A DNA stretch of 32,408 nucleotides from Candidatus Micrarchaeales archaeon (GTDB taxonomy: Archaea > Micrarchaeota > Micrarchaeia > Micrarchaeales > CABMGC01). The notes under the pieces are model-generated. The model was not told the origin of the DNA and did not search any database. It saw only the letters and a list, made by a program, of their open reading frames with translations. Below are positions 31 to 28,641 of this stretch, in pieces. Where the stretch lies: the NCBI GenBank assembly GCA_049520335.1, contig JBEKPX010000002.1:1-32408 (forward strand), written 5' to 3'. Made by a program: the position numbers and the translations under genes. Every line of letters starts with the position of its first letter. Position 1 is the stretch's first letter.

Positions 31-1353
31 ATGGGTATCACTGGCATAATAATGGCAAAATACAACATTTACAGGGAACCAAAGCTGAGGCGGGAGGCAG
101 GATTGCTGCAGGTGGTCGCATATGGCGTTGGAAACATAATAGGTGCAGGCATCTACGTACTTGTTGGCGACGGTGCCGGCCTCGCAGGAGGCACGCTATG
201 GCTCGCGTTTCTTGCTGGTGCTGTTGTTGCACTTTTCACCGGACTCTCTTATGCCGAACTTTCCGCAATGTATCCCAAGGCGGCCTCGGAGTATGTTTAT
301 GTGCGCAAGGCCCGCGGCGGAAGATTTCTTTCGTTCCTCACTCAATGGCTCATGCTTGCGACAGAGATAGTCGCTGCTGTAACAGTATCGTTGGGCTTCG
401 CAGAATATTTCCAGAATCTGTTCACTGTGCCGATACCCCTGGTCGCCGCTTCTTTGTTGCTGTTTCTTACAATGGTTTCGATAAATGGAGTTAAGCATTC
501 GCTCCGACTTAACACTATTCTAAGCGCTGTGGCTGTGCTTGGACTTCTAATAGTCATCATAGCTGGAATTCCAAGGTTAGGCTCCGTTGACTATACTTAT
601 ACTCCAAATGGACTTACCGGCATCTTTGGAGCTGCTGTTCTTGTTTTCTTCGCTTTCGTAGGATTTGATAATATAGCAAACCTCTCCGAGGAAGTCAAGA
701 AGCCTGCCAAAACTCTGCCAAAGGGCTTCATCATATCGATTGCAGTAACGACCGCCCTTTACGCTATGGTAGGCATTTCGGCAGTGAGTCTCGTCCCTCC
801 TGAAAAGCTCGCAGCTTCAAATGCCCCACTCGCACTTGCAGCATCAATGACTTTTGGAGGAGTGGCATATGATGTGCTCACTGCAGCTGCACTTCTCACT
901 ACGCTGAACACCGTCCTCGTACTCCTAATAACCTCTTCGAGAATAATTTACGGGATGGCGAGGGCTGGCGAGTTGCCGAGAATTATGGGTCGGGTCCACA
1001 GTAACACTAATGCGCCCGCTGTAGCGTCGTTTGCAGTTTTGGCTGTTGCCTTGCTTTTCCTGCCAATAGGCAAGATAGATGTTGTAGCTGAGGTAACAAG
1101 CTTTGGAGCGCTTATCACATTCATGATGGTTAACATCGCTCTGCTCAATCTTAGAAGAGTAGAACCTATGATGCACCGACCCTTCAAGGCGCCCCTAAAC
1201 ATCGGTTGGATATCGGTAACTGCATTGCTTGGAGTCTTATCTTGCATCGTACTACTTACTCAATTCAGCCAAATTGGCATTGTATTTGGTATGGTGTTAC
1301 CAATCTCTGGAATATTGATATATGAATTTTCACACCATTTTAGGAGAAGATAG
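31..1353 (+). CDS. APC-superfamily amino acid/polyamine permease
   Basis: 440-aa ORF, hydrophobic throughout (about 12 TM). Motifs VVAYGVGNIIGAGIYVLVG near the N-terminus and FAFVGFDNIANLSEEVKKP are signatures I associate with APC permeases. The start could also be the ATG at 52 (MAKYNIY). Confidence 0.85.
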   Translation: MGITGIIMAKYNIYREPKLRREAGLLQVVAYGVGNIIGAGIYVLVGDGAGLAGGTLWLAFLAGAVVALFTGLSYAELSAMYPKAASEYVYVRKARGGRFLSFLTQWLMLATEIVAAVTVSLGFAEYFQNLFTVPIPLVAASLLLFLTMVSINGVKHSLRLNTILSAVAVLGLLIVIIAGIPRLGSVDYTYTPNGLTGIFGAAVLVFFAFVGFDNIANLSEEVKKPAKTLPKGFIISIAVTTALYAMVGISAVSLVPPEKLAASNAPLALAASMTFGGVAYDVLTAAALLTTLNTVLVLLITSSRIIYGMARAGELPRIMGRVHSNTNAPAVASFAVLAVALLFLPIGKIDVVAEVTSFGALITFMMVNIALLNLRRVEPMMHRPFKAPLNIGWISVTALLGVLSCIVLLTQFSQIGIVFGMVLPISGILIYEFSHHFRRR

Positions 1354-1435
1354 TACAAAATAAGTAATCTCTAGCAATACCTATAATCCTAGCTTAGGTG
1401 TGAAGACGAGATTTGAACTCTTCAAACCACGAGGA

Positions 1436-1500
1436 ATTCGCCTCTTAACGCGCCCTTCTCTTATTAGTCTGACTCCCGGCCTAGGTCTGGCTTGTTAGAG
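1436..1500 (+). repeat. Cassette-associated repeat, copy 1 (subfamily A)
   Basis: ATTCGCCTCTTAACGCGCCCTTCTCTTATTAGTCTGACTCCCGGCCTAGGTCTGGCTTGTTAGAG, 83 nt after the permease stop. Core CTGACTCCCGGCC at 1469-1481. About 40/46 identical to copy 2 by hand alignment. Confidence 0.8.
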
Positions 1501-1521
1501 TTCGGCTACACATCATGTTAA

Positions 1522-1537
1522 CTTTTATATTTTTATT
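1522..1537 (+). promoter_or_regulatory. TATA-box-like element upstream of 1552 ORF
   Basis: CTTTTATATTTTTATT centred about 25 nt upstream of the ATG at 1552. The spacing fits an archaeal TATA box driving a leaderless mRNA. Confidence 0.35.
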
Positions 1538-1551
1538 GAGCTACTACTGAT

Positions 1552-1983
1552 ATGGCGGCAGTGACATGGATGAAAATCTCCGTAGTAATCATAGTAATGG
1601 CGGCATTGCTGGGACTATCTGCATACTTTGTCATAGCAAATAGAAGTAATAGCAGTAACATAGTTACTCAAGGAAGCCAGACATTCGTAGGCACTATAAA
1701 TAGGTCAACTCTTTCACCCCAAAATCTGACGGGAATCGAAGCACTTTCAGACGAAGGCTGTGCAGTAGATTCTAGTGGGATGTCCAACTGTACTACTAAA
1801 TTAAATACGAAATATGGGATTATCTCATTTAATTATAGGCATAATGAGACTTTAAAGCCCTGCATTTCACTAGGGGACATAGTAAATATTCAAATAAAAG
1901 AAGGGGGAGTGGCGATATTGACTAGGACGTACCAGAATTTAAGCAATTTAAATTCAAATCAAAGTCTAAGTTGCAAGTCATAA
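1552..1983 (+). CDS. Hypothetical membrane-anchored/secreted protein, rich in N-glycosylation sequons
   Basis: 143-aa ORF with one N-terminal TM helix (ISVVIIVMAALLGLSAYFVI). It has many N-x-S/T sequons (NRS, NSS, NLT, NCT, NET, NLS, NQS). I recognise no family. Confidence 0.55.
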   Translation: MAAVTWMKISVVIIVMAALLGLSAYFVIANRSNSSNIVTQGSQTFVGTINRSTLSPQNLTGIEALSDEGCAVDSSGMSNCTTKLNTKYGIISFNYRHNETLKPCISLGDIVNIQIKEGGVAILTRTYQNLSNLNSNQSLSCKS

Positions 1984-2009
1984 GCATTCTTTCATCTACT
2001 CTCCTCTAA

Positions 2010-2060
2010 ATTCGCCTTTTAACCTGCCTTCTCTTATTAGGCTGACTCCCGGCCGAGACC
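2010..2060 (+). repeat. Cassette-associated repeat, copy 2 (subfamily A)
   Basis: ATTCGCCTTTTAACCTGCCTTCTCTTATTAGGCTGACTCCCGGCCGAGACC, 27 nt after the stop at 1983. Core CTGACTCCCGGCC at 2042-2054. Confidence 0.8.
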
Positions 2061-2173
2061 TTCATGAACAGATACTGAGGAAAACCATAGTAATAAAATA
2101 ATAATACTCTGCTCATCATCATGTATTTCACCAACACATATATACCAGAAAAACAGATCTACTTCTGATAAAA

Positions 2174-2572
2174 ATGAGTGAAGAGCAGACCAAAGAAGCA
2201 GATCACAAATTCGGGTCACTGCCGAGTGAAGAGAAAATCAAAGAAATGGACCGTAACTTCACGAAAATGCTAGACGATTCTAACAAAAGTCAATTAATAG
2301 ACATTTTGCGTGGTGCAAAAACAAAAATCAAAACAGGTGCCTTAGACATAGGTACTGGAGCAACTGCAACAGCTACAGGATGGGTGTTGAATGAGAATAT
2401 TCCCTTGTTAGTTGGAGGAAGTATTTTAGTAGTAACTGGCATTTTTGTGCTTGCTCGAGGTATTAAACACCAAAAAACAGCAAACAAACTTTCTTCAGAA
2501 ATTCAACAAAAATCTCCAGAGGAGATACATGATAGTATTCGAAAGCACTTCTGGAAAAAAATTAAGCATTAA
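2174..2572 (+). CDS. Hypothetical small membrane protein
   Basis: 132-aa ORF with charged N- and C-terminal parts flanking a hydrophobic segment (IPLLVGGSILVVTGIFVLARGI). I recognise no family. Confidence 0.5.
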   Translation: MSEEQTKEADHKFGSLPSEEKIKEMDRNFTKMLDDSNKSQLIDILRGAKTKIKTGALDIGTGATATATGWVLNENIPLLVGGSILVVTGIFVLARGIKHQKTANKLSSEIQQKSPEEIHDSIRKHFWKKIKH

Positions 2573-2624
2573 GCCCTATTACCCCACCTCGGCAGTTTAC
2601 CTCGACTCTCGGTTGAGGTCTTGG
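2561..2624 (+). repeat. Cassette-associated repeat, copy 3 (subfamily B)
   Basis: ATTAAGCATTAAGCCCTATTACCCCACCTCGGCAGTTTACCTCGACTCTCGGTTGAGGTCTTGG, overlapping the stop codon at 2570-2572. Core CTCGACTCTCGGTT at 2601-2614. Shares AAGCCCT...CTCGGCA..TTA with copy 4. Confidence 0.65.
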
Positions 2625-2694
2625 AAAAGAAGCTAATTAAGGACAAAAGAAAGTATCTTATAGATTTCAATCCCCCTACTAAGTAGGTTGTAGA

Positions 2695-3105
2695 ATGGTC
2701 GTAACCGTTTTGCCGAAAGGGAACAGAGAAGCGGCGGAAGCTGCACTAGCCAAGCATGACGAGGCAGAGGATAGTTGGAAAAATAGCAGTGAGAGGGAAA
2801 ACGCCATGAAAGAATATCCCGGAGAATACATTGCAGTGCGTGGAACGAAAGTAATAGAGCACTTCAAAGAGATGGATGATCTCTTCAAAGCGCTGAGAGA
2901 AAGAAAATCCCAAGGCAAGAACCTACTTATGATAGTCACTGACCATCTGGTTCCTAAAGCGAGGAGTCGTGCAGAGATTCTCAAGCATCTAGATATTTTA
3001 GATGAAATGCTAATTCACGATCCAGTGAGGTGTGAACTAAGAGAGCTTCAGAGGAGGGCAAACTCCATCACACCAGAGGAACTCCACAGACCATTCACTA
3101 TCTGA
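2695..3105 (+). CDS. Hypothetical protein, possibly DUF5678-like
   Basis: 136-aa ORF. The segment YPGEYIAVRGTKVIEHFKEMDDLFKALRE resembles the (Y/F)-x-G-x-(W/Y)-(V/I)-A-(V/I)-x-G-x-K-V-(V/I) core I remember from small archaeal DUF5678 proteins. This is a weak call. Confidence 0.5.
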   Translation: MVVTVLPKGNREAAEAALAKHDEAEDSWKNSSERENAMKEYPGEYIAVRGTKVIEHFKEMDDLFKALRERKSQGKNLLMIVTDHLVPKARSRAEILKHLDILDEMLIHDPVRCELRELQRRANSITPEELHRPFTI

Positions 3106-3138
3106 CGGCACTTTTTAGGCATATAATACAGCTAATAA

Positions 3139-3192
3139 TCTCTTAATAAGCCCTCGGCAAATTAGACTGACTTCCGGCCGATGACTTTAGGA
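3139..3192 (+). repeat. Cassette-associated repeat, copy 4 (subfamily B)
   Basis: TCTCTTAATAAGCCCTCGGCAAATTAGACTGACTTCCGGCCGATGACTTTAGGA, 34 nt after the stop at 3105. Core CTGACTTCCGGCC at 3167-3179. Confidence 0.75.
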
Positions 3193-3226
3193 TTCTTAAC
3201 CATAACGCCAATCTTTAAATAGCACG

Positions 3227-3236
3227 CTTATAAAAG
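3227..3236 (+). promoter_or_regulatory. TATA-box-like element upstream of 3256 ORF
   Basis: CTTATAAAAG centred about 24 nt upstream of the ATG at 3256. A second candidate, CTTTAAATAG, lies at 3213-3222. Confidence 0.3.
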
Positions 3237-3255
3237 AAATAGCATTTGGGGGAAT

Positions 3256-3924
3256 ATGCAACAAAAGCTACGTGAAACTGACGAATTAGTTCAGCAATTC
3301 AGAATGGTCGCAGATTCAAAACTCCAGCACCTGCGTAATCTTAATCGACCACTAAGAATAGGTATGGACATTGATGGCACGCTAGCACACTTTCATGATG
3401 TGTTCATCCAAGTCTATAATGGTATTCACGGCACAAACTTTACCAAAAAAGACATAACAAACTATGATTTTGGCAAGGTAAAGATGTCTCCAGGAGAATT
3501 TCCTGTTCTACACGAACACGTTTGGTCCACCGAATCAGAAGCCATACTGCCAGCAGCAGACCCCGTGTTGTTGAAGGAGGAAGTTAGTGAAAACAAAGTA
3601 GATATACTCACATATAGACCTATCGAACAGCAACCTGCAGTACAACACTGGCTTGAAAGAAATTATTCTGAGATAAAATTTGACATAGTGATTGTAAGAA
3701 AGACAGAGGATAAGTTGTATCTGGGCTATGATATACTGCATGATGATGCAAGCCCCCTCGCCGAGGAGATACTCAAATCAAACGAAACAGTCTCAACACA
3801 GCTTCTTCTTGTAAATCAACCATGGAACATGAAAACCAAGTACGAACAATTATCAGAAAAAATAACAAGAGTGCCAGACATCAACGCTGGAATAAGGATA
3901 GTGCTAAATCTAAAGCGAAACTGA
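3256..3924 (+). CDS. HAD-superfamily hydrolase, 5'(3')-deoxyribonucleotidase (NT5C)-like
   Basis: 222-aa ORF. HAD motif I is DIDGT, within RIGMDIDGTLAHFHDVF. A later DILHDDA resembles the distal Asp motif. Size and layout fit NT5C-type nucleotidases. Confidence 0.6.
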   Translation: MQQKLRETDELVQQFRMVADSKLQHLRNLNRPLRIGMDIDGTLAHFHDVFIQVYNGIHGTNFTKKDITNYDFGKVKMSPGEFPVLHEHVWSTESEAILPAADPVLLKEEVSENKVDILTYRPIEQQPAVQHWLERNYSEIKFDIVIVRKTEDKLYLGYDILHDDASPLAEEILKSNETVSTQLLLVNQPWNMKTKYEQLSEKITRVPDINAGIRIVLNLKRN

Positions 3925-3929
3925 CGGTT

Positions 3930-3975
3930 CTCTTTAACATCCTGGCAACCCCTACTGTCTTCCGGTCAAAACCTT
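3930..3975 (+). repeat. Cassette-associated repeat, copy 5 (divergent)
   Basis: CTCTTTAACATCCTGGCAACCCCTACTGTCTTCCGGTCAAAACCTT, 6 nt after the stop at 3924. Core CTGTCTTCCGGTC at 3955-3967. It lies at a convergent gene boundary with no downstream + strand gene. Confidence 0.55.
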
Positions 3976-3985
3976 CTGAATCTCA

Positions 3986-4948
3986 TTAAGTCAGTCCAAA
4001 ATAAGCAAGTCCTCCAAGCAGCAAAAGTGCACCGAACCCAAAAGAGGCAAAAGCTAGGCGTTTATCCATTTTTTCTATTCCCGCTTTGCTCTCGCTTCTT
4101 ACTGTAAGGATCTTAGTCGCCTTATCATATGACATTCTTTTCACTGGTTTGCCATTAAACATGCCATCAGTATCTGTTACTCTGCCCATAACAAAGTAAT
4201 CTGTATTCATTGGGAGTACCAATTCAGTTATCATCAACGCATTGCCTCCAGACAGCCCCCCTTTTCCAAGTCCAGTTGCCTGGAATTCAAGGCCAAGATC
4301 ATGTAATTCGTTCTCTGCCATGTCGTTTTGAAATATAGCCATGATTTCTTTACCTTCAGGCATACTAGTTCTAATCCCAACTCCATCTACATTCACTGGA
4401 AAATATGATTTGGCTTTCATGTTTAAATCCGCTTCATACAGCGGAACTGCTAGATATCCTGTTCCATCAGTCATTAGTGTTGGAATGCCTCTGCTTACCG
4501 AACCGCAGGCCTCCCAGTGGCTGCTCTTTCCAGCATTTATATATTGCAAAAGGGTTGTCACAAAGTATACGCATTTTTGTTTTGACATCAAGCTCTCAAG
4601 GGCGTCTCCCTTCTCAGGAATGAATTGTGCGCTTATTTCATTCAAGCCTTCCGATGCGCCGTCAATCTTCACTGTCGGGATATCATCAATCGTTTGCATT
4701 AACTGGAACTCAAGCCATCCTCCAACTATGAATGCGACACCGAAACCCCCTAAAACCCCAAAAAAGTACGGAGATATGTTCTTTATTATAGGAGGCTCCC
4801 CATGTTTGCCTGGAGAACCCAACATAGCTAAAATAAAAAGTGCGGCAATAAACAGTATAAATATGAGGTACACTCTTCCAAAAATGCTCTTGCCACGGCC
4901 GGTAATGGATTTTTCTTCAGGTATGTACGAACATCTTGTCTGCACCAA
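3986..4948 (-). CDS. GIDE-domain membrane protein (LemA-associated)
   Basis: 320-aa ORF with two N-terminal TM helices and one C-terminal TM helix. The central region (VKIDGASEG...KCVYFVTTLLQY...IPTLMTDGTGYLAVP) resembles the prokaryotic GIDE domain (PF12483-like). It lies directly downstream of lemA, a pairing I know from many prokaryotes. Confidence 0.6.
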   Translation of the reverse strand: MVQTRCSYIPEEKSITGRGKSIFGRVYLIFILFIAALFILAMLGSPGKHGEPPIIKNISPYFFGVLGGFGVAFIVGGWLEFQLMQTIDDIPTVKIDGASEGLNEISAQFIPEKGDALESLMSKQKCVYFVTTLLQYINAGKSSHWEACGSVSRGIPTLMTDGTGYLAVPLYEADLNMKAKSYFPVNVDGVGIRTSMPEGKEIMAIFQNDMAENELHDLGLEFQATGLGKGGLSGGNALMITELVLPMNTDYFVMGRVTDTDGMFNGKPVKRMSYDKATKILTVRSESKAGIEKMDKRLAFASFGFGALLLLGGLAYFGLT

Positions 4949-4993
4949 GACTGGTTTGTTTGGTTGTAGGAGTTCATCCGTGCAAACACGCCG

Positions 4994-5557
4994 CTAAACA
5001 TTCACTTTAACTGCTCCCCTTTCTCCTTCAGGGGCCTCAAAAAACGGCATAGGTTTGTATTTCAGCATCCCGGAGAAGAAGTCGTATGGGACTATTGCTA
5101 TTTTTATGTTATATTCATTAACGCTGTCATTGTAGAATTCTCTTCTGTCCGCTATCTCATTTTCTATTTCTATTAATTCCTGCTGAAGTGTTGTGAATGA
5201 CTGGTCCGCTTTCAGATCAGGATAGTTTTCAACATCTGCAAATAAAGTTTTAAGCGAAGCAGATATCTGATTTGATGCCTGCATCTTATTGCCTATGTCA
5301 TTGTCTCCCTCTACATCGGCCCAGGTGCTTCTCAGTGCAGTCACTTTCACTAAAAGTGTCTTTTCATATTTCATGTAGCCCCTAACAGTCTCAACAAGGT
5401 TTCCTATAAGGTCGTGCCTTTTTTTGAGAATAACGTCTATGTTAGACCACGCCTTGGTTACGTTGTTTCTTAGCCTGATCAGGTTGTTGTATATCAAGAC
5501 AAAAAGTCCAGCCAAAATGACTATGACTATGGCACCTGCGGTTAATAAGATGGACAT
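4994..5557 (-). CDS. lemA: LemA family protein
   Basis: 187-aa ORF with an N-terminal TM helix, then YNNLIRLRNNVTKAWSNIDVILKKRHDLIGNLVETV and later YPDLKADQSFTTLQQEL...RREFYN. These are classic LemA signatures. Confidence 0.9.
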   Translation of the reverse strand: MSILLTAGAIVIVILAGLFVLIYNNLIRLRNNVTKAWSNIDVILKKRHDLIGNLVETVRGYMKYEKTLLVKVTALRSTWADVEGDNDIGNKMQASNQISASLKTLFADVENYPDLKADQSFTTLQQELIEIENEIADRREFYNDSVNEYNIKIAIVPYDFFSGMLKYKPMPFFEAPEGERGAVKVNV

Positions 5558-6109: not shown

Positions 6110-6197
6110 GCAAACAATAGTTGTTTAATATTTTAACAAATAAAGAAAAGCATATCGTATAAGCTCGGATTCCGAATCCCTCATCTAAGCTTGGCTA

Positions 6198-17289: not shown

Positions 17290-17406
17290 TGTCAAACGGC
17301 CATAGGAGCGGTGAAACACCCGATCCCATTCCGAACTCGGAAGTTAAGACTGCTCACGATGCGAAATACTGCCCCACAGGGTGGGAAAGCGCGTTGCTGT
17401 TTGGCA
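17290..17406 (+). rRNA. rrf: 5S ribosomal RNA
   Basis: TGTCAAACGGCCATAGGAGCGGTGAAACACCCGATCCCATTCCGAACTCGGAAGTTAAGACTGCTCACGATGCG...GCTGTTTGGCA. It contains the universal CCGAAC..GAAGTTAAG loop C/helix III motif. The 5' TGTCAAAC pairs with the 3' GTTTGGCA (helix I, one G-U pair). Length is about 117 nt. Confidence 0.9.
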
Positions 17407-21744: not shown

Positions 21745-23565
21745 ATGAAGGATATGAACTTTCGCTCAGTTCTACTCTCTATAGCAATCATAAGCCTCTG
21801 CTTAGCATATTTCCTTTTCACTAACCAGCAATATTTCTCAGTAATATCTATGGTCTCCATCTTTGTGCTTGCTCTACTTGCCGCATTTATTTTTCTGAAA
21901 GCAGACGAAATCTCTTCACGTCCCGACAAGAATACCTATCTGATTGTCTCAGTCGCAATCCTGATCATCATTACCCTGTACGAAGTCTTGTTTATGCACC
22001 CCACTGGAGCCGAAGAGTCATTCACGCTAAATGTTGTATTTCTCGTCTCGATAGCAACTTTAATATCATTAGGCGGAATATACCTTACTGCAGAAGTATT
22101 CAAGCGTCCAAGTAAAAAAGGAAACTTGCTTATCCTGATAGTTATCATATGCCTGTTACTAACATCATCCCTTTCATTCCTCTCCATGTACGGTTTCAAT
22201 CCAACTAACTGGAGTGGTGTCGATGAAGTGGCGTATAATTACTATGCAGCATATCTCTTCGACCACGGATCAAATCCATATGTCTCGAGCATGGAGCCCA
22301 TACTCAATCAACGTCACATATTTCCGACACTGCAGCTTGATGGAAATTATGAGTATGCGTATGAGTATCCTGCATTCTCCTTCCTCGTCTTCTTCTTCAT
22401 GCCGCTGCTCAACATAACCTCCTTCTATACGTTTATCGTGCTTGTGACAGTGTTCAGCGTGTTCATCTCCTACTTCCTATACTATAAATCGGGCTTCAAT
22501 GCGTCGCTTCTTCTGCCGCTTGGGGTCTGGCTATTCTTTTCCTTCATACTTGTTGGCACTACAACCCATTATCTTGCCATAGCGGTATTTGTCCTTCTCG
22601 CATACCTAGAGAGGAAGAACGCGCTCCTGAGCGGTGTACTTCTTGGACTTGCGGCATCGACAATACAGCTCGCATGGTTCTTCATTCCATTCTTCTATGT
22701 CCTAGAGCTGCGTGAGTTCGGAAAGAAGCCCTTCTATAATCAGGTAGTATCTTCAATCTTGATCTTTGTCCTAGTAAACGCCTACTTCGTCGCGCTTTCT
22801 CCGCATCAGACAATATCAAACATCTTCGGACTGCTGGGGCTCAACAAACTTCCTCCATACGGCACGAACTTCATGCAGTTCAGCTATGCCTTCTACCCCC
22901 TCTCATACTGGTACTCGACCTTCATGTCAATAACAGTTTTCATGACGCTTCTCATCCTGTTCTACTTCTATACAAAAACGCTGCTCCCCTTCATAGCAGT
23001 TGTGCCTGCAATGATATTCTTTCTATCATGGAGGAACATAAGCATCTATGACCTGCCTGCAATCCCGCTCATCTTCGCCGTATACTACTGCAGCAGCAAT
23101 TCGAAGGATCTTATAGAGAAGAAAAGCTACATAGTCTACGCATTCGCTGCCTTAGTGTTGATCGGAGTAGTAGTTGCAATATACTCGCATGCCGCATATG
23201 TGGAAAACCAAGGTATACGCATAAATAGCATAATTCCCATACTCTACATCTCAAATGCGACTGGGGGAAACATGTACCGCCTTGGAGGGTTTGTAGCAAA
23301 CGTCTCGAACAATGAGCCGGTGGCAGAGAATGTCTCATTCTATATGACGAGCAGAAGCCCTAACAATGAAGCATATACGCCAGGCTCGATGCTGCCCGTG
23401 CTTGCTCCTGGTTCATCGAGAAACTACACCATAAACTTCCAACTCGGCCTGGTAAACAACAGCACCAGGCTTTTCGTGATGGTTTTCACCAGGGACTACA
23501 TCACAAGCACGACGCTGAACATAACAATAAGGGCACCTCCAAAAGCCACACAGCCATTGAAATAA
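21745..23565 (+). CDS. Polytopic membrane protein, GT-C-type glycosyltransferase-like (DUF2029/GT87-like signature), paralogue 1
   Basis: 606-aa ORF with more than 12 TM helices. The first large loop has VDEVAYNYYAAYLFDHGSNPY ... YEYPAFSFLVFF. This is like the D-x-x-x-Y...G-x-x-P-Y...Y-P-(P/A) pattern of GT-C mannosyltransferase-like DUF2029 proteins. The C-terminal ~100-aa soluble domain is rich in sequons. Confidence 0.55.
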   Translation: MKDMNFRSVLLSIAIISLCLAYFLFTNQQYFSVISMVSIFVLALLAAFIFLKADEISSRPDKNTYLIVSVAILIIITLYEVLFMHPTGAEESFTLNVVFLVSIATLISLGGIYLTAEVFKRPSKKGNLLILIVIICLLLTSSLSFLSMYGFNPTNWSGVDEVAYNYYAAYLFDHGSNPYVSSMEPILNQRHIFPTLQLDGNYEYAYEYPAFSFLVFFFMPLLNITSFYTFIVLVTVFSVFISYFLYYKSGFNASLLLPLGVWLFFSFILVGTTTHYLAIAVFVLLAYLERKNALLSGVLLGLAASTIQLAWFFIPFFYVLELREFGKKPFYNQVVSSILIFVLVNAYFVALSPHQTISNIFGLLGLNKLPPYGTNFMQFSYAFYPLSYWYSTFMSITVFMTLLILFYFYTKTLLPFIAVVPAMIFFLSWRNISIYDLPAIPLIFAVYYCSSNSKDLIEKKSYIVYAFAALVLIGVVVAIYSHAAYVENQGIRINSIIPILYISNATGGNMYRLGGFVANVSNNEPVAENVSFYMTSRSPNNEAYTPGSMLPVLAPGSSRNYTINFQLGLVNNSTRLFVMVFTRDYITSTTLNITIRAPPKATQPLK

Positions 23566-23623: not shown

Positions 23624-25435
23624 ATGCAAAAAGAGATACTGCTGTTCTTCGCGATAATAGATCTCAGCTTCTCCTATTTCGCATTCACAGGCGCGCAGTA
23701 CTTCTCGCCATTTTATATGCTCCTCATCTTTCTGTTGCCTCTCCTTTCCGCAGCAATTTTCATATTCACGTCCACTGATTATTTTGATTCAAGCAAATAC
23801 AGGAGCTACATCACAGCGGCATTCATAGTAGCGTCTATTCTGCTGATATATCTTAATGCAGCATTCGACCATCCCACACCTTCCGTCTTCAACACGGTGC
23901 TTTACGTGATATGGCTCCTCTCAATCGCATCAGCGATAAGCATTGCGGGGTTCTATCTCATCGGAAGAGTAATGGGATATCTGGAAAAGAGGCCAAAGAA
24001 ATTCATATATGCAGTTGTTATTCTTCTGCTAGTATTAACAGCCAGCGTCGCATACCTTTCTCAATACGGATTTAAAAGTTATGACTGGAACTATGTCGAT
24101 GAACTTGCATATAACTATTATTCATCTTACCTCTTCCTCCACGGACTTAACCCTTATACTCAAAGCATGAAACCCGTATTGGAAAACAGGAGCACGATCC
24201 CAAGCCCTTTCATGCTCAACGGCACATACGATTACACCTATTACTACCCTGCATTGAGCTTCCTCGCATACATTCCGATAACGGCAATCGGAGTGACTGA
24301 TCTTCTTAGTTTCATAGTTGTGCTCACATTCCTTGCCATTGTCTCAGCATTCGAAGTATACTACAAATCCGGATTCAACAAACTGACGCTGATTCCGCTT
24401 GCCGCATGGCTAGGTTCAAGCTTCTTCCTCTCTTTCAGCACAAACGCATATCTTTCCGTCTCAACTCTGTTGTTGTTTGCATATTTTTACAGGAACAAGA
24501 TCGCTATTTCAGGTATTCTGATTGGACTTGCGGCAAGTGCCACCCAACTCTCATGGTTTGCATTGCCCTTCTTTTTCCTGCTCACCGCAAGGAAGCTTGG
24601 AAATAAGAAGATGGTCAAACAGATTTCCTTCTCATTTGCAGCATTCATTGCCATAAACGGCTATTTCATAGCGAACGCCCCAGGTGCGACGCTGAACAGC
24701 CTCTTCAGTCTCTTTTTCACAAACAGGCTGCAATTCGCAGGAATAGACATGGTCCAGTTCCTTCTGGCATTCTATCCTGTATCATACGGCTACTCTGCGC
24801 TAATATCCGCTATATCTCTGATTGCGATGATGTTTCTGTTCTACTTCTATGGGAAAAGTGCAAGGACGCTTCTTGCTGTGGCTCCTGCATTCATATTTTT
24901 TCTATCATGGCGAAATTTTGCAGTGTACGGCCTCGCCTACATTCCTCTCCTGATTGCGATATACTATACTGGCAACGAGAGCGAGAAGAAGGAAGCGGAC
25001 AAACTAAAAAGCAAGAAACCGATGCTCATCCTCCTTGGTTCAGTTGTGCTCATCGCGATTGTAGCAGCAGTTTACCTCCATGAAGGTTATGTGAAGAGCG
25101 ATTTGCTGAAAATAAACGGCATGATGCCCATAATATACGTGAACCAGAACAACCAATATTCTCTTGGCGGCGTGCTTGCGAATCTGACGAACAACGGGAA
25201 CGTCATCGAGAATGTCTCATTTTACCTGATAAGCAGAAGTCCTGATGGATGGGTCTCCGTCGCAGGTTCCACAATGCCTCCATTAAAACCCGGAACAGCA
25301 TCAGGCTACATAATCAATTACAATCAACCTATGATAAACAACGGCACAAGACTGTTTCTGTTTGTCTCAAGCAAAGATTACATAACTAACAGCGAGCTAA
25401 ACATAACAATAAGTCCGCCTCCAAAGATCACTTAG
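23624..25435 (+). CDS. Polytopic membrane protein, GT-C-type glycosyltransferase-like, paralogue 2
   Basis: 603-aa ORF, colinear with 21745-23565. Shared blocks are VDELAYNYYSSYLFLHGLNPY, YYYPALSFLAYI, YYKSGFN, LGLAAS.TQL.WF..PFF, FFLSWRN and the C-terminal ENVSFY..SRSP...TRLF..V...DYIT...LNITI.PPPK. Confidence 0.55.
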   Translation: MQKEILLFFAIIDLSFSYFAFTGAQYFSPFYMLLIFLLPLLSAAIFIFTSTDYFDSSKYRSYITAAFIVASILLIYLNAAFDHPTPSVFNTVLYVIWLLSIASAISIAGFYLIGRVMGYLEKRPKKFIYAVVILLLVLTASVAYLSQYGFKSYDWNYVDELAYNYYSSYLFLHGLNPYTQSMKPVLENRSTIPSPFMLNGTYDYTYYYPALSFLAYIPITAIGVTDLLSFIVVLTFLAIVSAFEVYYKSGFNKLTLIPLAAWLGSSFFLSFSTNAYLSVSTLLLFAYFYRNKIAISGILIGLAASATQLSWFALPFFFLLTARKLGNKKMVKQISFSFAAFIAINGYFIANAPGATLNSLFSLFFTNRLQFAGIDMVQFLLAFYPVSYGYSALISAISLIAMMFLFYFYGKSARTLLAVAPAFIFFLSWRNFAVYGLAYIPLLIAIYYTGNESEKKEADKLKSKKPMLILLGSVVLIAIVAAVYLHEGYVKSDLLKINGMMPIIYVNQNNQYSLGGVLANLTNNGNVIENVSFYLISRSPDGWVSVAGSTMPPLKPGTASGYIINYNQPMINNGTRLFLFVSSKDYITNSELNITISPPPKIT

Positions 25436-25891: not shown

Positions 25892-27247
25892 TTATGCAAC
25901 GCTTACTTGCACGTCCCTTACAACTATGCTGGGCATGAAGTAATAACTGTTGTCAACGTCCCAGGAAGTCGTCTGCCTTGTGTCGTTCGCTGCGCACTCT
26001 ATGTTCTTAAGCATCCTGATCACATTGTCGCTTATCCTTATCCCCACCATCGAGCTAACGTCCCTCTGCTTTATCGCGAACTTAGGTTCGCCTTTCTCTA
26101 TATAAACGGTCAGGTCCCTCGGCATCGTTGAAAACTCGCCCGTTATGTAGTTCGCAAACCTGGTGTACCAGAGATTCGTGACAAGTATGCCCCTGTCGAC
26201 TCTTCCTATCAGTCTTTCAAGATCCTTCACCTTCTTCCTGTGCTCAAAGACTGGCGTATTCGGATCGGGATTTATGAGGCCGGCATTGCCTGTGCTTTTC
26301 GTCCTGTATTTCCTTGCTGTTGAGAAGTTGTGGAGGTAATTAGCCAGCACCCCCTCCTTTATCACAGGCGTTCTCTGAGTGGGATAGCCCTCATCATCGA
26401 AGCTCCTGGCAAGTACGGCGCCTTTCATGTTGCCGTCATCATACAGAGTCACACTCTTATTCGCTACTTCGCTTCCCAGTTTCTTCGCGAATACGCTGCC
26501 TGTCTCAATGTTTCCCATCGCTGCCATCGAATCTATCTCAGAGATGAGACCGCCTCCCGGAGATGGGAGGTATATGATATCATAAGTTCCCGCTCTGATC
26601 TTCCCAGTCCTGCTTATTTTACTTATCAGTCTTACGCTGTCCTTTGCAAAACTCTCTGGATTTGTGCCGCTTATCGATGTTGATGCGGTGATGTCTTGGA
26701 AGGATGTGATATCATTGAAGGCCCTCAAAGACATCCTTATGGTAGTGCTCTTCCACTTCTTATCAACGCTCTTGCTCGTGGCAAGTTCCTTGTCAGCATA
26801 CCTCATAAATATCATCCCTGCGACTTTCTTAGCCCCTTCTTCAGTCGCTGCATTTATGCAGGACTCCGCGATACCGGATGCAATCTCAAGCGTGGAGTTT
26901 TCTATTCTTCTGTCATATCCAATCAATTCTTTTTTGTACCTGAAAGGCCCTTGCGCTATGCCATAATAATCCTTCTTAGGCACAGTGAGCTTTATCAGAG
27001 AGACTGCGCGGTCTACCGCCGATTCAATGCTCTTTCTTTCAGGTTTCTGTATGTTGGTGAAGAAAATTCTCTTTTTGCGCGAGACGAATAGATCTCCATA
27101 ATGATTCATCTTCTCCACTATGGAGTCTATCTTAGAGTTGGTTATCTTCACAAAAATCCTTGTGCTGGTGGAGAAATTGGATACTGCCTCATCGAAGCCT
27201 TTCGAGATCGCCTTGTCAACAGTTTCAAGCGCAAGTCCCATGTTCAT
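25892..27247 (-). CDS. pmbA: PmbA/TldE-family protein (non-catalytic partner of TldD)
   Basis: TldD/PmbA-fold ORF lacking HExxxH. I place the start at the ATG at 27247-27245 (MNMGLALETVDKAI), which shares one base with the tldD stop (TGATG). The track's extension to 27322 would overlap the tldD coding sequence. Confidence 0.8.
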   Translation of the reverse strand: MNMGLALETVDKAISKGFDEAVSNFSTSTRIFVKITNSKIDSIVEKMNHYGDLFVSRKKRIFFTNIQKPERKSIESAVDRAVSLIKLTVPKKDYYGIAQGPFRYKKELIGYDRRIENSTLEIASGIAESCINAATEEGAKKVAGMIFMRYADKELATSKSVDKKWKSTTIRMSLRAFNDITSFQDITASTSISGTNPESFAKDSVRLISKISRTGKIRAGTYDIIYLPSPGGGLISEIDSMAAMGNIETGSVFAKKLGSEVANKSVTLYDDGNMKGAVLARSFDDEGYPTQRTPVIKEGVLANYLHNFSTARKYRTKSTGNAGLINPDPNTPVFEHRKKVKDLERLIGRVDRGILVTNLWYTRFANYITGEFSTMPRDLTVYIEKGEPKFAIKQRDVSSMVGIRISDNVIRMLKNIECAANDTRQTTSWDVDNSYYFMPSIVVRDVQVSVA

Positions 27248-28641
27248 CACTTGAACCTCAGCAGCGCCGATGCGCCGCCGTTCGTCACAGGGACCCCCTG
27301 CATCGGTTCGCCCTTCCCGCAAGTCGCAACATACAGCTCAAAATCATTCCCGATGAGTGCTACAGCATGCCAGAAATCAAGCGTTGCGGAATCGAGCTTG
27401 TAATTCTTCACAGGTTCCTCTAAGCTCCCTTTCCTTATAATGTATGCCTCGTTTCCAGCGTACCTCGCGAAACTCCTTGTGTCATCTATGTTCCATTCAG
27501 TACTGCTGAAACGTTTCAGGTAAATGCCGTTTCCCGCTTCAGATATCAGCTCATCAAGCGTGGCACTCCCAGGCTTTAGGTATGTGTTTGACATTCTTAT
27601 CAATGGCTCATTCGAATAGGAATCGCTTCTTGCTGAGCCGTTGCTGCGCAATCCTAAAAGATGTGCGAACTCCCTGTTGGTCAGCATCTCCTTCTGCACG
27701 CCTTTCTCAACTATTTCTCTTGGTCTGGCCCTCACACCCTCCTCATCATACAGGTAATAGCCGTTCGAGTTCCTTATGGTAGGGTCGTCGATTATGGTCA
27801 CCGCCTTGCTTCCTATCTCAAGGCCCATATTCTCACGTGTCATGTAGCTCGTTCCAGCCTGAGCAGCTTCCCTTCCAAAGACTCTGTCCGCCTCATTAGG
27901 GTGCCCTACGCTCTCGTGTGAAGCTATTCCACTTATCTCTGGGGATATAACTATATTCTTGATTGATTTTAACGCGGTGTTGCTCAGCGTCTTTCCCCTC
28001 TCAAGAACGCTGTGAAGTCTCTTGGAGGAGTCTACCAAATCTGATGACACTTCGCTCGCGTCGAAGTACTCGTAGCCGCCAGTATTTCCGAGCTGCGTCA
28101 TACTCTGTCTGCTTTCTCTTCCATTGCTTACCGTTATTGCAAAGAATGCGGAAGTGCTTGGAACGTCGCTGCTTATCCTAGTTCCATCCGAATTAACATA
28201 GTATGTTCTCGACCTTCCCAGTCCACCATAAAGGCTCCTGTATCTTATGTGCTTGGCTTTTCCGAGTTCTTTGTCTATCTTCATCAGGTCCTTTAGCATA
28301 TTCGCATCATCAACGCTCTGCTTCTCGTGCACCTTGTAGCTGGCCCTCTCCCTTTTCTCCCTTGAGAGTCGTGTAGTCAAGCCAGGGAAGATTCTGAATC
28401 TGTGAATAAGCCTCTTGATGCAACCCTTATCGAGCTTGTTCGTAGATGCAGTATAGAGCCTGCCCTTCATTATCAGCCTTATCCTTATTCCAGCCTCCTC
28501 CCCATGGGCGCTTGCGTTGACCCTGCCTTGCTCTATCGCAAAAGAATTGGCGTATGACCTCTCAAAGTAGGCCTCGGCATACTCAGCTCCCAGCGCCTCT
28601 GCTGTTCTGAGAGCATATTCCGCTTCATCAACGCCTTGCAT
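27247..28641 (-). CDS. tldD: TldD-family metalloprotease
   Basis: 464-aa ORF. It has the HExxxH motif in IASHESVGHPNEADR and the C-terminal CGKGEPMQGVPVTNGGASALL block typical of TldD. Confidence 0.85.
   Translation of the reverse strand: MQGVDEAEYALRTAEALGAEYAEAYFERSYANSFAIEQGRVNASAHGEEAGIRIRLIMKGRLYTASTNKLDKGCIKRLIHRFRIFPGLTTRLSREKRERASYKVHEKQSVDDANMLKDLMKIDKELGKAKHIRYRSLYGGLGRSRTYYVNSDGTRISSDVPSTSAFFAITVSNGRESRQSMTQLGNTGGYEYFDASEVSSDLVDSSKRLHSVLERGKTLSNTALKSIKNIVISPEISGIASHESVGHPNEADRVFGREAAQAGTSYMTRENMGLEIGSKAVTIIDDPTIRNSNGYYLYDEEGVRARPREIVEKGVQKEMLTNREFAHLLGLRSNGSARSDSYSNEPLIRMSNTYLKPGSATLDELISEAGNGIYLKRFSSTEWNIDDTRSFARYAGNEAYIIRKGSLEEPVKNYKLDSATLDFWHAVALIGNDFELYVATCGKGEPMQGVPVTNGGASALLRFK

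Follow-up and report, generated by a model that had tools for sequence, protein, structure and literature searches.

A repeated 54-nt element as a candidate recombination junction between single-gene modules in a small archaeal island

The stretch of DNA analyzed here (the window) is an entire contig of 32,408 nucleotides (nt), and near its left end lie five + strand open reading frames (ORFs), at 31-1353, 1552-1983, 2174-2572, 2695-3105 and 3256-3924, each paired with one copy of a 54-nt element. In our judgement, the best reading of this locus is that the element is a lineage-specific junction repeat where promoter-gene-element modules are inserted or swapped. With about even confidence, we take the element, and notably its core CTGACTYCCGGYCGAGRNCT, to be a recombination junction that marks the limits of single-gene modules within a small, hypervariable island. 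An initial annotation of the window had proposed a cassette-array-like locus built on this repeat; the repeat itself is confirmed, and its interpretation as a cassette-like locus is partly supported. The contig carries archaeal markers (RNase P p29, S4e, L10P, Spt5 and 5S rRNA), and the permease encoded by the first of the five ORFs is closest, by database protein comparison, to proteins labelled Nitrososphaerales or Nitrososphaerota; we describe the host of the island as an uncultured Nitrososphaerota-like archaeon. Analysis of the host's own genome was confined to this contig, and the relatives compared with it were L001 and L058 (Logan), L049 (JGI), L053 (JGI 3300035696), L056 (JGI 3300038415), L054 and L057.

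The most conserved part of the element family is the ~20-nt core CTGACTYCCGGYCGAGRNCT, which has two TTA-containing boxes upstream. When the 32 kb were scanned with R1, a sequence-only covariance model, exactly five matches were obtained, all on the + strand and with expectation values (E) of 1e-9 to 1e-13; the next best match had an E of 0.49. The ORFs and the five short cores that the initial annotation had quoted are present in the sequence at the coordinates it gave, and its claim that a related element follows each of the five genes was borne out by the R1 scan. Since R1 was trained on the five proposed copies, its search is circular, and therefore a leave-one-out nhmmer search was performed, in which the left-out copy was the sole non-training match in every case. 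Copy 1 (1435-1488, core 1469-1488; R1 43 bits, leave-one-out E 3.6e-6), copy 2 (2009-2061, core 2042-2061; 41 bits) and copy 4 (3135-3187, core 3167-3186; 42.9 bits, E 7e-7) were robust in this search, with E from 4e-6 to 4e-7. Copy 3 (2568-2621, core 2602-2621; 36.6 bits), which overlaps the stop codon of gene 3, was recovered at E 0.043, and copy 5 (3922-3974, core 3955-3974; 32.6 bits), which is degenerate and sits between convergent genes, at E 6.2. The 13-nt core CTGACTYCCGGYC occurs four times in the window with at most one mismatch, against 0.06 expected occurrences, and the core of copy 5 carries one mismatch. Pairwise identity is 85% between copies 1 and 2 (over 54 nt), 65% between copy 4 and either of these, and 39-56% for copies 3 and 5 against the rest. 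On the leave-one-out, 13-nt core and identity results together, the repeat therefore stands as three strong, one moderate and one weak copy.

The copies are 559-788 nt apart and co-oriented, with one ORF per unit and one copy per spacer. The distance from the element to the stop codon ranges from -5 to about +81 nt, and that to the next ATG from 70 to 120 nt. Within the contig and the relatives' loci scanned, the repeat family is real and confined to this island: R1 detected no further copy in the 28 kb that make up the rest of the window (the ribosomal operon and ~30 genes), and its matches in ~60 kb of relatives' loci were limited to a copy in L056 and one degenerate core in L053, both described below. 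The initial annotation had held that copies behind many core genes would point to a general 3' motif; no copies were found in the 28 kb of core genes or in the relatives' loci outside the island. The family has so far been seen in one narrow lineage only.

The comparison with relatives revealed three homology breakpoints at or beside cores, as follows: First, the 993-nt contig L056 aligns to window positions 1596-2061 at 90.8%, a segment that comprises gene 2 and an element copy, the latter scored at 29.8 bits (E 1.7e-9) by R1, which was not trained on L056. The similarity ends directly after CCCGGCCGAGRCCT (...GAGRCCT), at window position 2061/2062, which is the 3' end of the core, and beyond it L056 has a different promoter spacer and, in place of gene 3, an unrelated ORF that spans at least 147 aa. 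The initial annotation had rightly assigned the element to the preceding gene. Second, L053 (12.6 kb) is colinear with window positions 10659-3978 at 80-81% nucleotide identity, and the blastn match ends at 3978, ~4 nt beyond the 3' edge of copy 5, after which unrelated genes follow; the five-gene block is absent from this ~80% identical relative. Third, L053 contains a degenerate core at 9145-9115 (- strand; E 0.03 with R1, which was not trained on L053 either), with a divergent, unrelated gene to its left, and the spacer behind this core matches the one that follows the core in L056 at 75-80% identity (z = 15). The homologous promoter-like spacers (L056 477-552 and L053 9082-8998, - strand) match up to the ATG while the ORFs behind them are unrelated, and additional breakpoints near start codons therefore have to be assumed. 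The three breakpoints show that the left-hand and right-hand sequences joined at a core can vary in combination from genome to genome.

The core is kept, unlike the spacers and the remainder of the element, which diverge. A comparison of the window with L056 shows 1 change in ~20 nt for the core region and ~9 in 33 for the 5' half of the element, with gene 2 being 91% identical; the core therefore appears to be constrained or homogenized. To the right of the array, the 320-aa gene that adjoins copy 5 keeps its synteny with LemA in L053 and L054 and probably in L057, and the gene 3' of this LemA/320-aa pair differs in every relative seen.

In the arrangement that we propose, each module would take the form of own promoter, ORF and element, and modules would be added, lost or replaced by crossover at the core, which would account for the different genes that flank an otherwise conserved core in different genomes. 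The array would span window positions ~1489-3974 and hold four or five modules, adjoining the conserved LemA/320-aa block, the edge of which would be marked by the terminal copy 5. The permease gene may flank the array on its left or form its first unit. We infer that the core is the actual crossover site and that the modules move as units. As the agent, we consider a site-specific recombinase, whose gene would lie elsewhere in the genome or on a mobile element, or else homologous recombination that the repeat would seed once DNA has been transferred. Because dyad symmetry is lacking, the core site of a classical tyrosine or serine recombinase is disfavored, and since the site is without classical inverted-repeat arms, we lean slightly toward repeat-seeded homologous recombination or a non-canonical recombinase.

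Several observations weigh against a recombination junction. Structurally, the element has neither the hairpin nor the inverted-repeat arms of characterized recombination sites: the fold z-scores of the five copies lie between -0.59 and +0.61, no better than shuffled sequence, and the best 11-nt inverted repeats reach 6-7 of 11 matching positions, again no better than shuffles. No recombinase, integrase or transposase family was detected among the 29 contig ORFs scanned with Pfam, in line with the initial annotation, which had noted that the window lacks a recombinase, and none is encoded on L053. In the leave-one-out search, copy 3 was marginal and copy 5 was recovered via its 20-nt core alone. 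The L056 junction is represented by one 993-nt metagenome contig, and the join could be a chimera across the common core or derive from another locus. Moreover, the spacer sharing between L056 and L053 is not predicted by a pure promoter-ORF-element cassette model. Scans of public genome, metagenome and viral collections for the exact core returned chance matches only, the lineage apparently not being in these collections, as not even the JGI contig L049 came back; the matches were single, covered the pattern alone and failed the full model. Finally, L001, L058 and L049 match the window in gene order, at 99.6-100% identity, and the strain-level contigs L001 and L049 carry an identical array. 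In the strain comparison foreseen in the initial annotation, a boundary polymorphism was found exactly at the element in L056 and the block is missing from L053; L001 and L049 are invariant, and neither the contig nor L053 supplies a recombinase. The cassette idea of that annotation, in which genes are exchanged together with their sites, withstood its own tests on the general 3' motif and on the boundary polymorphism; the integron membership that it had attached to the idea does not stand (see below).

A serious rival to the junction reading, which we consider possible but doubtful, is that the core has a regulatory or RNA-level role to which recombination is incidental. Under this explanation, the element would be a cis-regulatory or RNA motif of co-regulated island genes, acting as a 3'-untranslated-region (3'-UTR) or 3'-end signal of the preceding gene or as an operator or activator site of the next one, and the breakpoints at the core would be coincidental or a by-product of a conserved motif serving homologous recombination. 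It agrees with the element having the same orientation as the genes, with the core being kept while its flanks drift, and with four of the five copies lying 70-120 nt 5' of the next ATG; in addition, the core and the promoter spacer together precede different ORFs in L056 and L053, and copy 5, the sole copy with no downstream gene, is the most degenerate. However, a 54-nt asymmetric element with neither dyad symmetry nor structure is atypical for an operator or terminator, it contains no oligo-T tract (the T5 run directly after the gene 4 stop codon lies before copy 4), and its distances to stop and start codons vary as given above. The 3'-UTR role is disfavored because the L053 core does not lie behind any co-directional gene, and the operator role is disfavored because copy 5 has no downstream gene. 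Furthermore, by a rough estimate, a breakpoint in a 190-nt spacer would lie as close to the core end as that of L056 (within 3 nt) with a probability of ~3%.

A stronger version of the junction reading, in which the island would represent an undescribed archaeal (Nitrososphaerota-like) gene-cassette system, seems unlikely to us. Such a system would consist of self-expressed single-gene cassettes that are inserted and excised at the hairpin-less, asymmetric ~20-nt core CTGACTYCCGGYCGAGRNCT by a dedicated recombinase, and it would be analogous to integrons in function and mechanistically unrelated to attC/IntI.

The copies may also be inert scars without present function, an explanation we regard as improbable. 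Larger mobile elements would have integrated site-specifically, one after another, at one target, leaving duplicated att sites behind, and would since have decayed to single cargo genes. As in att-site arrays, direct repeats flank each inserted segment, the sites would outnumber the genes by one (n+1 against n) with the permease gene counted as the flank, and identity declines along the array; serial att integration with scattered partial att copies is also documented (PMC6563490; bioRxiv 10.1101/2020.12.28.424599). With regard to the att target, copy 1 is 82 nt 3' of the permease stop codon, and no empty-site relative was present among those found. Against scars speak the uniformly tiny units of 560-790 nt with one intact gene each, the lack of integrase fragments and of a tRNA target on the contig, and the live-looking content difference at the core in L056; the conservation of the core relative to L056 likewise suggests ongoing constraint or homogenization.

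A local accident, in which copies 1, 2 and 4 would be functionless small duplications, copies 3 and 5 chance matches and L056 a chimeric assembly, is very unlikely in our view. The weak leave-one-out scores of copies 3 and 5, the single short contig of L056 and the absence of variation among the near-identical strain contigs would fit it. This explanation leaves aside that the run has a co-oriented copy in each of its spacers and the window none elsewhere, that the copy 5 core with one mismatch compares with 0.06 such matches expected per window, that the element recurs in L056 and, in degenerate form, in L053, and that the core is selectively conserved.

We attach next to no probability to a canonical integron cassette array or a cluster of attC sites lacking integron-integrases (CALIN), since one co-oriented ORF per unit, repeated 3' sites less than 4 kb apart and the existence of archaeal integrons and CALINs (PMC9668308) are outweighed by the missing attC hairpin and R''/R' box pair, the missing IntI on the contig and the own promoter-like box of each gene. 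The label of the initial annotation fails for want of a stable fold, the box pair, dyad symmetry and an integrase on the contig. The consensus structure of a seven-sequence alignment had 3 pairs, none of them covarying, and an energy of -0.75 kcal/mol, and no RYYYAAC/GTTRRRY box pair was found at the copies, the single pair in the window lying inside the permease gene.

Further identities were rejected for the element. The attC, dif/Xer, terminator, known-RNA and repetitive extragenic palindrome (REP) or miniature inverted-repeat transposable element (MITE) identities were each discarded because a tested defining feature was missing. For attC, the hairpin, the R''/R' boxes and dyad symmetry are lacking. 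For a dif/Xer-type site, no 11-6-11 inverted-repeat arms above chance were present, and arms fixed around the CCGG center matched at 0-6 of 11 positions. As a transcription terminator or general 3' motif, the element has no T run and no copies after ~30 other genes of the window. As a known structured RNA, it has no Rfam match: in the whole window, 5S rRNA alone passes the gathering threshold of Rfam 15 (which holds no attC model), and in the region 1300-4050 nothing better than E 2.7 and no tRNA-like match was obtained. REP and MITE elements do not fit as there are no inverted repeats and all copies lie on one strand within 2.6 kb. A tRNA fragment or an att site in a tRNA was rejected given that no tRNA gene was found on the contig and no tRNA-like Rfam match in the region, and a C/D-box small RNA given that copy 1 matched Rfam at E 4 only and the other copies have no C box. 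A coding remnant is contradicted by stops and indels that break every reading frame, and an antisense promoter by a TATA-like box that is not conserved.

The five encoded proteins are mutually unrelated by protein comparison, as the initial annotation had stated, and its family assignments also agree with Pfam. The permease gene (31-1353, +; GC content 0.48) encodes an amino-acid permease (AA_permease_2, E 4e-50). Gene 2 (1552-1983, +) encodes a 143-aa protein with an N-terminal membrane anchor and many N-x-S/T sequons, and gene 3 (2174-2572, +) a 132-aa small membrane protein; neither has a Pfam family. Gene 4 (2695-3105, +) encodes a 136-aa DUF5678-like protein (E 5.9e-7), and gene 5 (3256-3924, +) a 222-aa NT5C-like HAD nucleotidase (E 2.9e-8). 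Genes 2-5 all fall in 90%-identity clusters of 1-3 members; the cluster of gene 2 has no more than three members, and those of genes 4 and 5 have one each. These small clusters, the unrelatedness of the genes and the low GC content of genes 2, 3 and 5 speak for the junction reading. No viral relatives of genes 4 and 5 were found, and PHROG and PADLOC scans of the island genes gave no mobile-element or defense signal. AT-rich TATA-like boxes were located by direct reading of the sequence 24-35 nt upstream of the ATG of each of the five genes, in keeping with the initial annotation. The low GC content that it had reported for the island holds for genes 2, 3 and 5 (0.37-0.40, with 0.31-0.38 at third codon positions), but the contrast is only modest because most neighbors are at 0.40-0.50, and the permease gene does not share it.

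Some further features of these genes and their spacers were observed. A 15-nt block, GAKCTACTWCTGATA, stands just 5' of the ATGs of genes 2 and 3 (1537-1551 and 2154-2168), and a 17-nt block is likewise shared (1502-1518 and 2108-2124); both blocks run colinear with copies 1 and 2. The significance of these pre-ATG blocks is marginal (5/500 and 25/1000 shuffles in two tests), and whole-spacer homology among the units of the window beyond the 15-nt pre-ATG block of spacers 1 and 2 was not significant. The 5' part of gene 3 contains an internal 37-nt direct repeat (2176-2212 and 2224-2260, 73% identity). L049 (99.6% identical) differs from the window in 13 places, eight of which fall in a 100-nt patch at 994-1092 inside the permease gene; this patch looks like a short recombination tract. 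In relatives whose permease is 68-73% identical, the neighboring genes differ, with neither synteny nor the element; these relatives are uninformative because they are too distant.

The conserved right flank begins with the lineage-specific 320-aa gene (3986-4948, -), whose product has homologues at 31-79% identity, followed by LemA, DUF192 and ArsR-DUF4382 genes. In L053, an extra LUD_dom gene (4824-5432) lies between the ArsR-DUF4382 gene and DUF192 and is missing from the window at ~6110-6197; this difference is a second single-gene indel in the neighborhood. Elsewhere on the contig, the 5S rRNA gene (17292-17405, +) lies directly 3' of the ribosomal-protein operon, away from any 16S/23S gene. 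Two tandem paralogues (21745-23565 and 23624-25435, +) encode proteins of 606 and 603 aa that are 42% identical and are predicted to be multi-pass membrane proteins, with no Pfam family. At 25892-28641 (-), PmbA/TldD-type metallopeptidase genes form a tandem pair with overlapping ORFs.

The island resembles integron arrays and CALINs in its tandem, co-oriented, unrelated single genes of mostly unknown function with a related site after each, in the change of gene content at the site between genomes and, as in CALINs, in having no adjacent integrase. A CALIN is defined by two or more co-oriented attC sites less than 4 kb apart that have short ORFs between them (PMC9668308), and the five co-oriented copies with one ORF each satisfy this spacing, although the definition presupposes attC sites. 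In contrast to the island, integron arrays and CALINs have the attC hairpin, the R''/L''/L'/R' architecture and the GTTRRRY core, whereas the island has a promoter-like box for each gene and no IntI, which a complete integron requires, was found on the contig.

Two other groups of site-bounded elements are comparable. The pdif modules of Acinetobacter (PMC6449649) and integrative mobile elements exploiting Xer (IMEX) are likewise small accessory modules between short conserved sites with the recombinase not inside, comprising one to a few genes that are shuffled between replicons. Their dif sites consist of two imperfect inverted-repeat arms of 11 bp around a 6-bp spacer (PMC2958812) and alternate in orientation, while the island sites are direct repeats with no such symmetry. 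Thaumarchaeal integrated elements, which can integrate serially at one att site (PMC6563490), and the att-repeat islands of Prochlorococcus tycheposons (bioRxiv 10.1101/2020.12.28.424599) share with our locus the att direct repeats among cargo genes, the hypervariable island beside conserved genes and the degeneration of older copies. They differ in being several kb long, in carrying integrase and replication genes now or once, and in mostly targeting tRNA genes; the island, unlike serial att arrays, has units of 560-790 nt, no tRNA and no integrase remnant.

Swaps of unrelated genes by homologous recombination are also anchored by short intergenic sequences or flanks that are conserved, at the module-border motifs of mosaic phages and archaeal plasmids and in the minimal mobile elements of Neisseria. 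Those cases, however, involve viral or plasmid genomes or conserved flanking genes, and they are not known to form tandem arrays on a chromosome in which each gene has its own repeat.

For bacteria, site-bounded gene cassettes are one of the main routes to new genes, and to our knowledge the sole equivalent described in archaea is the classical integron, in a few metagenome-assembled genomes. A second, structurally distinct junction element for single-gene modules would show another route to the flexible gene pool of archaea, here of the Nitrososphaerota, which include ammonia-oxidizing archaea. The core would also give a sequence tag for locating such islands, and the recombinase, in metagenomes. 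Should the exchange instead be due to homologous recombination at a regulatory motif that is conserved, the locus would still be a clean, small case of repeats channeling gene turnover at a synteny breakpoint.

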